Source: a virus
Lineage: Duplodnaviria > Heunggongvirae > Uroviricota > Caudoviricetes
Virus record (IMG/VR): IMGVR_UViG_2744054447_000008
Strand: one strand, 5' to 3'
DNA: 5,707 bases
Shown piece by piece: positions 1 to 5,707 of the stretch. Position 1 is the first letter of the stretch. Each line of letters begins with the position of its first letter. Both the position numbers and the translations under genes were made by a program. The notes below the pieces were generated by a model. That model ran no database searches. It saw only the letters and a program-made list of their open reading frames with translations, and had not been told where the DNA came from.

Positions 1-162
1 CCAGAGCCTGAGCCATTTGAAAATAACATTATCATTGACGCCATTTTCACGTGCAATCTGTGCAACACAAGCTCCAGGTTGTGATGCCAGTTCCACCATA
101 CGAAGTTTGAATTCATTCGAATAGTTTTTACGAGGTTCTTTTCGCCAGTCCTGTAATTCCAT
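1..162 (-). CDS. IS transposase helper protein (OrfA/TnpA-like, HTH_Tnp_1 type), N-terminal 54 codons; gene continues past window start
   Basis: Hand translation of the minus strand from ATG at 162..160 gives MELQDWRKEPRKNYSNEFKLRMVELASQPGACVAQIARENGVNDNVIFKWLRLW, open to position 1. The pattern YSxEFKlxxVExxxxPGxxVAxIARxxGVNxNxxFKW is the helix-turn-helix signature of IS3/IS66-family orfA proteins. It falls below the 60-aa cutoff of the supplied ORF track because it is cut by the window edge. Confidence 0.6.
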   Translation of the reverse strand, partial: MELQDWRKEPRKNYSNEFKLRMVELASQPGACVAQIARENGVNDNVIFKWLRLW

Positions 163-166
163 ACTT

Positions 167-219
167 AGATGTCCGTCTATATCAGATGGGCGTCTAAGTT
201 ACCAATTCTCGTCTGATGG
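167..219. repeat. Direct repeats AGATGtcCGTCTA (167-179) and AGATGggCGTCTA (184-196), with a rearranged third copy CGTCTGATGG (210-219)
   Basis: Two 13-bp copies match at 11/13 positions, offset by 17 bp, immediately upstream (minus-strand sense) of the transposase-helper start codon. Confidence 0.35.
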
Positions 220-314
220 CTACATACGGCGGTCAGTTTACGCTTACGCTTCAGTTATCGCTATGCGATTCAAGTCACAAAATAAATCCATCCTAAATAC
301 AACCAGTTATATCT

Positions 315-358
315 AAAACAACCAATAAAACAACTTTTGTTGTTGACGATAAAACAAC
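315..358. repeat. Array of three AAAACAAC octamers (315-322, 327-334, 351-358) with an inverted copy forming AACAAC-TTTT-GTTGTT (329-344)
   Basis: Octamer starts are spaced 12 and 24 bp apart. A 6-bp inverted repeat with a 4-nt spacer spans 329-344. The region is AT-rich and non-coding, and TTGACG at 343-348 overlaps the right arm. Confidence 0.35.
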
Positions 359-564
359 TATAGTTTTAAATAAGTTCATCGCAACAACACAACGATACGG
401 CAACTACCTGATTCACCGTTGCGATGACCGCTTAGATCCGCAGTTTGAATTTCAGCAGGCTTCGGGGAGTGCGAGGGGTGAAACGGACGCGTGAACGTCG
501 GTGTGACCAGCTGAAATTAACTCAACATTTCATACCTTAGTCGCTTCAACGAGGCGGCTTAGTT

Positions 565-855
565 ATGACAACCGGCGGCCATCCACCGCCTGAATACGCG
601 CAGAAGTCTCTATATGTTCAGCAGCCCAGCTTACGGGCAGGAGTTTTTATGGTTCATCAACATTACGGAACGCAGACCGTTAATCGCGGTGCGGTCATGC
701 CAGGAATGCTGGTCAAACACAAAGATGGTACCTGGACTGCATCAGCTAATTTACGCGGACGGCTTTATCTGCATCGCGGCATCGAGCGCACTTATACCCG
801 TGATTTGCTCGTGGAAGTTTTTCTCGACGGACGCGGCAACGGCCTGAATCACTAA
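565..855 (+). CDS. Hypothetical protein occupying the position of lambda kil, immediately upstream of gam; no recognisable homology
   Basis: 96-codon ORF with a GAGG motif (551-554) 10 nt before the ATG. Codon usage is dominated by common enteric codons (ctg, gcg, cgc, ggc). Its stop lies 75 bp before the gam start, inside the short gam-leader stretch that I recall as conserved with lambda. An overlapping 77-aa ORF in another frame (614..847) is the alternative. Confidence 0.4.
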
Positions 856-930
856 TCCCCTTTCCTGTTTACCTAATCAGCCCGGCATTTCGCAGGCGAT
901 ATTTTCACAGCCATTTTCAGGAGTTCAGCC

Positions 931-1227
931 ATGAACGCTTATTACATTCAGGATCGTCTTGAGGCTCAAAGCTGGGCGCGTCACTACCAGCAGATCGCCC
1001 GTGAAGAGAAAGAGGCAGAACTGGCAGACGACATGGAAAAAGGTCTTCCACAGCACCTGTTTGAATCACTCTGCATCGATCATTTGCAACGCTGCGGGGC
1101 CAGCAAAAAAGCCATTACCCGTGCGTTTGATGACGATGTTGAGTTTCAGGAGCGCATGGCAGAACACATCCGGTACATGGTTGAAACCATTGCTCACCAC
1201 CATGTTGATATTGATTCAGAGGTATAA
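931..1227 (+). CDS. gam: Gam, host RecBCD nuclease inhibitor (short GamS form, 98 aa)
   Basis: Translation [44 protein letters not shown]...[12 protein letters not shown] matches lambda Gam as I recall it, apart from a few substitutions. AGGAG at 919-923 sits 7 nt before the ATG. An in-frame stop at 874-876 rules out a long N-terminal extension. Confidence 0.93.
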
Positions 1228-1232
1228 AACGG

Positions 1233-2018
1233 ATGAGTACAGCACTCGCAACGCTGGCTGGGAAGCTGGCTGAACGTGTCGGCATGGATTCTGTCGACCC
1301 ACAGGAACTGATCACCACTCTTCGTCAGACGGCATTTAAAGGTGATGCCAGCGATGCGCAGTTCATCGCATTGCTGATCGTCGCCAACCAGTACGGCCTT
1401 AATCCGTGGACGAAAGAAATTTACGCCTTCCCTGATAAGCAGAACGGCATCGTTCCGGTGGTGGGCGTTGATGGCTGGTCCCGCATCATCAATGAAAACC
1501 AGCAGTTTGATGGCATGGACTTTGAGCAGGACAATGAATCATGTACGTGCCGGATTTACCGCAAAGACCGCAATCATCCGATCTGCGTTACCGAATGGAT
1601 GGATGAATGCCGCCGCGAACCATTCAAAACTCGCGAAGGCAGAGAAATCACGGGGCCGTGGCAGTCGCATCCCAAACGGATGTTACGGCATAAAGCCATG
1701 ATTCAGTGTGCCCGTCTGGCCTTCGGATTTGCTGGTATCTATGACAAGGATGAAGCCGAGCGCATTGTCGAAAATACTGCATACACTGCGGAACGTCAGC
1801 CGGAACGCGACATCACTCCGGTTAACGATGAAACCATGCAGGAGATTAACACTCTGCTGATTGCCCTGGACAAAACATGGGATGACGACTTATTGCCGCT
1901 CTGTTCCCAGATATTTCGCCGCGACATTCGCGCATCGTCAGAACTGACACAGGCCGAAGCAGTGAAAGCTCTTGGATTCCTGAAACAGAAAGCCACTGAG
2001 CAGAAGGTGGCAGCATGA
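1233..2018 (+). CDS. bet: Bet (Red-beta) single-strand annealing recombinase, 261 aa
   Basis: Translation [82 protein letters not shown]... is the lambda Bet sequence with very few differences. The start is 5 nt after the gam stop, with AGAGG at 1218-1222. Confidence 0.97.
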
Positions 2019-2695
2019 CACCGGACATTATCCTGCAGCGTACCGGGATCGACGTGAGAGCTGTCGAACAGGGGGATGATGCATGGCACAAATTACGGCT
2101 CGGCGTCATCACCGCTTCAGAAGTTCACAACGTGATAGCAAAGCCCCGCTCAGGAAAGAAGTGGCCTGACATGAAAATGTCCTACTTCCACACCCTGCTG
2201 GCTGAGGTTTGCACCGGTGTGGCTCCGGAAGTTAATGCTAAGGCGCTGGCGTGGGGAAAACAGTACGAGAACGACGCCAGAACCCTGTTTGAATTCACTT
2301 CCGGCGTGAATGTTACTGAATCCCCGATCATCTATCGCGACGAAAGTATGCGCACCGCCTGCTCTCCCGATGGTTTATGCAGTGACGGCAATGGCCTTGA
2401 GCTGAAATGCCCGTTTACCTCCCGGGATTTCATGAAGTTCCGGCTCGGTGGTTTCGAGGCCATAAAGTCGGCTTACATGGCCCAGGTGCAGTACAGCATG
2501 TGGGTGACACGAAAAGATGCCTGGTACTTTGCCAACTATGACCCACGAATGAAGCGTGAAGGCCTGCATTATGTCGTGGTTGAGCGGGATGAAAAGTACA
2601 TGGCGAGTTTTGACGAGATGGTGCCGGAGTTCATCGAAAAAATGGACGAAGCACTGGCTGAAATTGGTTTTGTATTTGGAGAGCAATGGCGATGA
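2015..2695 (+). CDS. exo: Exo (Red-alpha) 5'-3' dsDNA exonuclease, 226 aa
   Basis: Translation [94 protein letters not shown]... matches lambda Exo. The start ATG overlaps the bet stop (ATGA at 2015-2018). Confidence 0.97.
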
Positions 2696-4338: not shown

Positions 4339-4575
4339 ATGTCTCGACTAATCACTTTACAGGACTGGGCTAAAGAAGAATTTGGGGACTTAGCACCAAG
4401 TGAGCGAGTTCTGAAAAAATACGCGCAAGGGAAAATGATGGCCCCACCCGCTATAAAAGTTGGTCGCTACTGGATGATTGACCGAAATTCCCGTTTTGTA
4501 GGAACGCTTGCAGAACCGCAACTCCCAATAAACGCAAACCCAAAACTCCAAAGGATAATCGCTGATGGCTGCTAG
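4339..4575 (+). CDS. xis: Excisionase (Xis-type recombination directionality factor), 78 aa
   Basis: Translation MSRLITLQDWAKEEFGDLAPSERVLKKYAQGKMMAPPAIKVGRYWMIDRNSRFVG... aligns by eye with lambda Xis (MYLTLQEWNARQRR...PPPVKDGREYLFHESA): the LTLQ(D/E)W and PP-hydrophobic-K-x-G-R-aromatic blocks are shared. It sits immediately upstream of int and overlaps it by 11 nt, and has a strong ribosome-binding site. Confidence 0.8.
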   Translation: MSRLITLQDWAKEEFGDLAPSERVLKKYAQGKMMAPPAIKVGRYWMIDRNSRFVGTLAEPQLPINANPKLQRIIADGC

Positions 4576-5707
4576 ACCCCGATCTCACAAAATCTCTATA
4601 CCCAATTTATATTGCAAATTAGATAAGCGAACCGGAAAGGTATATTGGCAATACAAACATCCACTATCCGGTCGTTTTCATAGCTTAGGAACTGATGAGA
4701 ATGAAGCAAAACAAGTTGCTACTGAAGCAAATACCATTATTGCTGAACAACGTACCAGACAAATATTAAGCGTCAATGAGCGTCTGGAAAGAATGAAAGG
4801 CAGGCGCTCAGACATTACGGTGACAGAATGGCTTGATAAATATATTTCTATCCAAGAGGACAGGCTGCAACATAATGAACTAAGACCCAACTCCTATCGG
4901 CAAAAAGGCAAACCCATTCGTCTTTTCCGTGAGCATTGTGGAATGCAACACCTCAAGGATATTACCGCACTTGATATTGCCGAAATAATTGATGCTGTAA
5001 AGGCTGAAGGTCATAACAGGATGGCGCAAGTCGTGAGAATGGTGTTGATCGACGTCTTCAAAGAAGCACAACACGCAGGACATGTTCCGCCAGGATTTAA
5101 CCCAGCGCAGGCAACAAAACAACCGCGAAATCGAGTAAACCGCCAAAGATTGTCACTGCCCGAATGGCAGGCAATATTTGACAGCGTAAGCAGACGGCAG
5201 CCCTATTTAAAATGCGGCATGCTACTTGCTCTTGTTACTGGACAACGTTTAGGCGATATCTGCAATTTGAAATTCTCTGATATATGGGACGACATGTTGC
5301 ACATTACTCAGGAAAAAACCGGTTCAAAACTTGCTATTCCGCTTAACCTGAAATGCGATGCTCTGAATATTACCCTTCGTGAAGTTATATCTCAGTGCAG
5401 GGATGCTGTTGTTAGTAAATATCTGGTCCATTACCGTCACACTACCTCTCAAGCAAACAGAGGAGACCAGGTTTCTGCAAATACTCTGACAACGGCTTTT
5501 AAAAAGGCCCGGGAAAAATGTGGCATAAAATGGGAGCAAGGAACTGCGCCCACATTTCATGAGCAGCGATCTCTGTCAGAACGGTTATATCGGGAACAGG
5601 GTCTGGATACGCAAAAGTTGTTAGGCCATAAATCCAGAAAAATGACCGACCGATACAATGATGATCGTGGTAAAGACTGGATTATCGTAGATATCAAAAC
5701 AGCATAG
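4565..5707 (+). CDS. int: Lambda-family tyrosine integrase (site-specific recombinase), 380 aa
   Basis: The N-terminal arm-binding region (RPRSHKISIPNLY...RTGKVY) resembles lambda Int (RRRSHERRDLPPNLY...RTGKEF). The catalytic region carries LVTGQRLGDIC, the HEQRSLSERLY box, LLGHKS and the tyrosine in DRYNDDRG, matching lambda's AVVTGQRVGDLC / HELRSLSARLY / LLGHKS / YRDDRG. AAGGA at 4551-4555 precedes the start, and the TAG stop is the last three bases of the window. Confidence 0.95.
   Translation: MAARPRSHKISIPNLYCKLDKRTGKVYWQYKHPLSGRFHSLGTDENEAKQVATEANTIIAEQRTRQILSVNERLERMKGRRSDITVTEWLDKYISIQEDRLQHNELRPNSYRQKGKPIRLFREHCGMQHLKDITALDIAEIIDAVKAEGHNRMAQVVRMVLIDVFKEAQHAGHVPPGFNPAQATKQPRNRVNRQRLSLPEWQAIFDSVSRRQPYLKCGMLLALVTGQRLGDICNLKFSDIWDDMLHITQEKTGSKLAIPLNLKCDALNITLREVISQCRDAVVSKYLVHYRHTTSQANRGDQVSANTLTTAFKKAREKCGIKWEQGTAPTFHEQRSLSERLYREQGLDTQKLLGHKSRKMTDRYNDDRGKDWIIVDIKTA

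Follow-up and report, generated by a model that had tools for sequence, protein, structure and literature searches.

What occupies the kil slot in a lambdoid prophage in which the DNA directly upstream of gam no longer resembles that of phage lambda? We addressed this question for a 5,707-nucleotide stretch of a Caudoviricetes virus (IMG/VR record IMGVR_UViG_2744054447_000008; hereafter the window), for which a preliminary description had noted a 96-amino-acid (aa) open reading frame (ORF; 565–855, + strand, beginning with ATG) and a competing 77-aa ORF with a CQEC motif in another frame, and had proposed that either could be a replacement cargo gene at a mosaic junction or that the stretch could be a non-coding remnant beside an insertion sequence (IS). 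Both ORFs are indeed present. On the evidence assembled here, it is very probable that a lambdoid prophage has its kil gene at 649–855 (+) and that this gene encodes a KilR-family division inhibitor that has been exchanged as a cassette with lambda Kil (Table 1).

Table 1 Features of the window around kil and along the downstream operon
Feature	Coordinates	Strand	Remarks
ISEc23-like IS66-family element, end	1..247	-	tnpA start at 162, runs off the window
Operator-like repeats overlapping the putative pL	315..371	+	
In-frame extension of the 96-aa ORF	565..648	+	most likely untranslated leader
77-aa ORF (CQEC)	614..847	+	spurious
Shine–Dalgarno AGGAG	639..643	+	5 nt before ATG 649; from reading the sequence
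kil (KilR family, PHROG 294)	649..855	+	68 aa; TAA stop at 853–855
Left cassette junction (phage D2)	649..651	+	kil start codon
Right mosaic junction with lambda, AATCACTAA	847..855	+	last His codon and stop, common to both kil types
Lambda-like kil–gam intergenic region (gam leader)	856..930	+	94.6% identity to lambda
gam, 98-aa form	931..1227	+	Pfam PF06064 Gam, E 3.7e-63; 96.3% DNA identity to lambda
bet	1233–2018	+	
exo	2015–2695	+	
xis	4339–4575	+	
int	4565–5707	+	

Coding frame and start of the gene upstream of gam

For the comparison of reading frames, 14 loci from other genera were recovered and 13 were taken as orthologues; a 100% identical locus cut at a contig end (L005) was omitted from the orthologue set. 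In all 13 cross-genus orthologues, the frame that is open from 565 in the window is preserved, and the protein begins at the methionine equivalent to position 649 (M[VIL].., followed by a conserved HYGTQ), whereas the 614–847 frame is interrupted by two to five stops in every one of them. Variable columns are distributed over the three codon positions as 19:13:58 (12 orthologues of window-gene length), and a comparison of the window gene with its 11 same-length cross-genus orthologues gives a pN of 0.08–0.14 against a pS of 0.56–0.81 in the kil frame. In both remaining frames of the kil region pN exceeds pS, with values of 0.25–0.31 against 0.09–0.15 for the 614–847 frame. The strong purifying selection in the kil frame excludes the idea of a non-coding remnant, and the stops found in every orthologue mark the 77-aa CQEC ORF as spurious.

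Within the 96-aa ORF, only 649–855 behaves like coding sequence. The in-frame sequence upstream of Met 649 is unrelated between genera, an in-frame stop lies four to five codons before the conserved methionine at 3 of the 13 loci (L007, L011 and L018), and the orthologues carry Shine–Dalgarno-like motifs (GGAG, GAGGG or AGGGG) ahead of that methionine. In the window, the region from AGGAG to ATG 649 is predicted to be open or unstructured, and a predicted hairpin (−16.3 kcal/mol; z −2.2) takes up both ATG 565 and its weak GAGG. This hairpin is the only structure that stands out in a leader (372–660) that is otherwise not unusually structured (z −0.16). Distant full-length members of the family are 64–73 aa long, and position 1 of the family profile aligns with their residue 1. 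Start conservation, selection and ribosome-site evidence therefore converge on 649–855 as the gene, with a product that is most likely 68 aa long and would be initiated in vivo at ATG 649, and with codons 1–28 of the longer ORF most likely serving as leader. The preliminary description thus had the correct frame and most likely the wrong length, and its characterization of the 96-aa product as Gly/Arg-rich was a mild overstatement (G 12/96, L 10/96 and R 8/96).

It seems improbable to us that a 96-aa protein is made from ATG 565, either as the sole product or as the long one of two isoforms with an N-terminal 28 residues that add function. An ATG at 565, a distant GAGG and an uninterrupted frame would permit such a product, and gene callers often predict forms of 95–96 aa or longer (one such call, P0001, has 472 member sequences, and the copy in phage Perceval is annotated as 139 aa); however, the 28-residue extension is kept only among close Escherichia coli relatives, ATG 649 is the start that has AGGAG at optimal spacing, the 68-aa form is the one called by RefSeq, and phage D2 joins the 565–648 stretch to unrelated sequence at ATG 649 (see below). 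Moreover, the stop codon that closes the upstream extension (TAG 538–540) comes and goes between near-identical relatives: the window has it and Perceval lacks it, which accounts for the 139-aa versus 96-aa annotations and indicates that the length of the extension is unstable. We consider the database gene calls of 96 aa and more to be probably over-extended. Three rare database variants of Kil (P0032, P0086 and P0088) contain a short internal stretch in another frame, after which the frame is restored (for example, ...PECWSN..., which is in the ‘CQEC’ frame); these stretches are compensated frameshifts or assembly errors.

Family membership, predicted fold and likely target

The DNA of 649–855 is 100% identical to a RefSeq coding sequence whose product, WP_000233576.1, is named ‘phage encoded cell division inhibitor protein’; searching the literature for WP_000233576 returned no paper. 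Residues 1–68 match PHROG 294 (‘Kil protein for bacterial septation inhibition’) with E values of about 1e-38 to 1.3e-37, and it is to this family that KilR of the E. coli K-12 Rac prophage is assigned, with lambda Kil being assigned to PHROGs 3924/2461. The similarity to K-12 Rac KilR extends across the whole core (36% identity, E 3e-12, BLASTP), and the subfamily profile aligns with KilR at an hhalign probability of 97.4% (E 1e-11). The NCBIfam model of KilR (NF008465, ‘FtsZ inhibitor protein’) matches residues 29–96 of the 96-aa translation (E 4e-17) with a score of 61.9 bits, which is below the curated cut-off of 92 and therefore points to a sister subfamily rather than to a KilR equivalog. 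Judged by these sequence comparisons, the gene represents, within the KilR/phi80-Kil family, a subfamily that is sister to Rac KilR, and the kil position is therefore filled by another, non-homologous kil. As had been noted earlier, the window ORF has no resemblance to lambda Kil (BLASTP gives no alignment up to an E value of 100; hhalign probability 0.15%); the gene is a functional analogue of lambda Kil and not a homologue. Of the proposed replacement cargo, the replacement of lambda kil holds and the notion of an unknown cargo falls, since the family is a known one.

Other searches were less informative. PF27398 is listed for the Kil family in the precomputed table of the database, and a local Pfam scan returned no match for the 96-aa ORF; in a sequence search of the PDB, no structure matched the family profile at E up to 10. 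The 77-aa ORF had no family match in Pfam, NCBIfam and PHROG scans other than a Pfam match to PHD_P300, which we dismissed as chance (13 bits only).

Many complete E. coli genomes contain loci that match 247–1300 at 100% identity, and in these the equivalent of 649–855 is annotated by RefSeq as WP_000233576.1. A single place covering at least 80% of the 1–1300 query, and thus including both the kil region and gam-bet, was found in 1,819 of the 5,426 complete E. coli genomes; the kil-gam-bet arrangement is therefore present in about one third of them. Free phages carry the stretch at 97–99% identity, annotated as Kil, ‘FtsZ inhibitor protein Kil’ or ‘phi80 Kil homolog’. By tblastn, the family occurs in 146 phage records, with Salmonella, Klebsiella, Enterobacter and Cronobacter among the hosts of these phages, and identity to the window Kil is 84–85% in HK225 and mEp237, 41% in phi80 and 36% in many Stx2a phages, in which the homologues are annotated as KilR or host killing protein. 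A protein that is at least 99% identical is encoded in 12 phage records, including 4A7, 1W and PhiR47_2 (100% in those listed), and Perceval encodes an identical Kil protein. The Kil family is small and narrow: when 1.84 billion cluster representatives were searched exhaustively with HMMER, only 74 matched at E up to 0.001. In a separate observation, the core of the Kil profile (positions 9–50) matched nine separate stretches of a 5,454-aa protein (P0153; E 1.4e-6), which may be a giant repeat protein of similar small beta-barrel units.

The AlphaFold2 (AF2) model of the 68-aa protein has six beta strands (pLDDT 82; mean of 54 for the last 8 residues), and the fold is predicted to be a small SH3-like beta-barrel that ends in a short, flexible C-terminal tail. 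This model fits what has been published for KilR, a beta core whose termini are unstructured (PMC12482147). Rac KilR (YdaD; 73 aa) is an FtsZ inhibitor (Conter et al. 1996, as cited in PMC3961180) and also a disruptor of MreB (PMC12482147). It is toxic, causing filamentation with Z-ring disruption at low expression and cell rounding with MreB mislocalization at high expression; extra FtsZ suppresses its effect, and its toxicity, unlike that of lambda Kil, is not relieved in ftsA* delta-zipA cells (PMC12482147). The window Kil shares with Rac KilR the PHROG, the size class, the predicted beta core with flexible C-terminal tail, and a location ahead of recombination genes in a lambdoid early-left operon, and differs from it in being linked to lambda Red (gam-bet-exo) rather than RecET, in belonging to another subfamily (below the NCBIfam cut-off), and in having a tail that is three residues shorter and unrelated in sequence. 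The Kil proteins of phi80, HK225, mEp237, SEN34 and Klebsiella and Enterobacter lambdoid phages are members of the same family, their genes always lying in the pL operon, with HK225 and phi80 differing from the window in the neighbouring recombination module; the Bievrevirus phages Perceval and 4A7 (annotated Kil or FtsZ inhibitor) carry identical copies that do not differ from the window Kil. Lambda Kil, in turn, is a 47-aa protein described in PMC3961180 and PMC11762379 as a ZipA-dependent FtsZ inhibitor, and in the title of PMC11762379 as having a predicted helix-turn-helix core, whereas the window Kil is predicted to be all-beta. The two nevertheless occupy the same slot directly upstream of gam, have the final His codon and stop in common and are interchangeable (as in phage D2), and host filamentation is the expected outcome of both; unlike lambda kil, the window kil has no cIII upstream.

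By homology with KilR, the 68-aa subfamily would inhibit FtsZ, and the comparison of the tails bears on how far the likeness may extend. The 12-residue C-terminal tail of KilR is absolutely required for toxicity, in a manner that depends on its length and not on its sequence, and a variant lacking three C-terminal residues (delta-3C) keeps filamentation and loses rounding (PMC12482147). The tail encoded in the window is DGRGNGLNH (9 residues) as against GRDGLPVKAESW in KilR (12 residues), and the two sequences are unrelated. As the tail is three residues shorter, an MreB-linked effect may be weaker or absent. A more radical divergence, in which the KilR-like fold has been retained for another target or role (division only, MreB only, or a superinfection- or defence-related role like that of DicB) and FtsZ inhibition is not the main activity, would be in keeping with the identity of only 36% to KilR, which is the sole tested member, with the NCBIfam score under the cut-off, with the differences in sequence and length of a functionally critical tail, and with the outcome of our literature search, in which no paper with a direct test of the 68-aa Kil subfamily was found. 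We nevertheless regard such a change of role as unlikely, because the gene holds the same operon position as other kil genes, is exchanged one for one with lambda kil and has a core that is strongly conserved across genera; moreover, given the length-dependent and sequence-independent action of the KilR tail, divergence of the tail is no evidence of lost function. A KilR-family division inhibitor remains our preferred reading of the gene.

Cassette edges, operon context and the insertion sequence

Alignment to lambda bears out both the lambda-like sequence from about 850 onward and the divergence upstream of it that had been noted in the preliminary description. Identity to lambda is at a random level over 565–648 (30%) and 649–846 (35%), and rises to 94% at 847–930 and to 96% at gam (931–1227), with the switch falling at 847–855. 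The sequence common to both begins with TCACTAA (849–855), which means that both kil types end in a His codon followed by TAA, and megablast matches to Stx phages with a lambda-type kil begin at window position 849. The left edge is revealed by phage D2 (OM475427), a sibling of Perceval and 4A7, which is identical to the window through GGAGTTTTTATG, that is, the kil start codon; this window-type leader gives way, in the recombinant D2, to the C-terminal end of the cIII coding sequence of lambda (M-RKLRDGWK...), after which come a kil of the lambda type and gam. As D2 carries a lambda-type kil between identical boundaries (649–651 and ~849), we interpret the two non-homologous kil types as having been swapped as a clean cassette. 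The edges of this cassette are codon-exact, being the start codon (649–651) on the left and the last codon with the stop (847–855) on the right. The D2 stretch concerned is 1635–1960 of our locus L019, with Ns just past the junction. The D2 record names the leftover ORF from the 565 ATG ‘prophage Kil protein’, a label that is a propagated mis-annotation.

Exchange at this position is in line with a survey of lambdoid mosaicism, in which three clusters of Kil proteins that replace one another in the early-left region were distinguished (two with low mutual identity and a third similar to neither) and in which Kil clusters were repeatedly co-transferred with recombination genes (PMC9836094). In other genera, other recombination modules are found beside the present kil type (RecE in HK225 and Agt/GamL in phi80), and Gam is encoded within the 1.5-kb downstream flank at only 2 of the 13 orthologous loci. 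The genes kil1 and kil2 of UTI89, known from a filamentation screen, were considered as possible members of this subfamily and rejected, as they adjoin cIII and are of the lambda type. In the window, kil lies on the same strand as, and upstream of, gam-bet-exo-...-xis-int, with several small lambda-like ORFs between exo and xis. The RefSeq annotation of an identical locus also supports gam at 931–1227, and, as relatedness to lambda ceases upstream of 847, only this 98-aa form is possible in the window. The RefSeq record of lambda still annotates a 138-aa gam that overlaps kil; the window constitutes a natural variant that supports the short (98-aa) form.

The IS reported nearby is also present. 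Its terminal repeat ends at ~246–247, about 320 nt upstream of ATG 565, its tnpA is 98–99% identical to IS66-like tnpA copies, and the match of IS-free relatives to the window begins at 247. In the IS-free relative L001, the insertion point has the terminator downstream of an S24-family (cI-like) repressor gene on one side and clustered repeats on the other. The exact IS/kil junction is absent from the 5,426 complete E. coli genomes, in which matches covering 1–259 are IS copies in other contexts. The stretch itself is unchanged in IS-free prophages and free phages. That the 77-aa CQEC ORF is a real, possibly overlapping gene, or that the entire stretch next to the IS is a non-coding remnant, is a reading with next to no probability, which the comparative data have already refuted: the ORF is open in the window and P0032 has a short stretch in its frame, but the frame is broken in the orthologues, shows pN above pS and has no family matches, and the stretch is under purifying selection in the kil frame and intact where the IS is missing.

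In the AT-rich repeat region that follows the IS, a pair of 17-nt direct repeats (325–341 and 349–365) and three occurrences of an AAAACAACY motif (at 315, 327 and 351) overlap a putative pL (TTGACG at 343–348, a 17-nt spacer and TTAAAT at 366–371). This promoter assignment comes from manual reading together with the operator-like repeats; a scan with the sigma-70 consensus returned no plus-strand promoter, the putative pL included. Matches to the motif exceed expectation (12 against 4.5), and in the intact relative L001 there is a single further exact copy, in the cro/cI intergenic region. On the basis of the sequence, the repeats look like the OL/OR sites of an uncharacterized S24-family repressor. 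Repeats of the types AAAACAACY and AACAAC..GTTGTT are clustered beside the putative pL, with a counterpart in L001 at 2040–2110. The genes N, cIII, ea10 and ral are all absent between the putative pL and kil. Because the insertion point lies before the operators, the IS leaves the kil-gam-bet-exo operon its likely promoter, and it would separate this operon from the repressor gene.

With respect to RNA elements, Rfam returned a single sub-threshold match in the whole window, with none in the leader. This match covers 154–364 (+), from the end of the IS into the operators, and is to the full-length model of the sRNA AfaR (E 0.009); its 32 bits fall short of the gathering score of 100, and it was rejected as probably chance or shared IS-end sequence. 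RefSeq annotates an sRNA, KilS, in the kilR leader of K-12 (L003, K-12 Rac, 4406–4503); neither the Rac kilR leader nor the KilS region resembles the leader of the window kil at the DNA level.

Implications for the kil slot of lambdoid phages

In the reading that we favour, kil is the first gene of the early-left operon, following the putative pL (~315–371) and a leader of ~270 nt and lying directly upstream of gam-bet-exo. On prophage induction, the KilR-family protein would, by homology with Rac KilR, block assembly of the FtsZ ring and possibly the organization of MreB, such that the host would form filaments during phage replication and recombination. The gene takes the slot of the unrelated 47-aa Kil of lambda, both types being exchanged as a cassette.

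Much of this is already known: the protein is in RefSeq with a functional name and is widespread, and the swap of kil types is documented. The importance of the locus beyond correct annotation is small, and lambda kil giving way to a non-homologous kil is an instance of documented lambdoid mosaicism; the codon-exact cassette edges are a useful by-product of the analysis. The subfamily is nevertheless very common, and a direct test of it was not found in the literature. As KilR delta-3C keeps division inhibition and loses rounding at the tail length encoded here, the subfamily could act on FtsZ only. We therefore raise, as a tentative and rather doubtful conjecture, that the 68-aa proteins are a natural FtsZ-only KilR, or have a shifted target range, and that the kil slot is a hot spot for inhibitor swaps. 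If this is true, lambdoid phages would swap division inhibitors of differing specificity at codon-exact boundaries in the kil slot.
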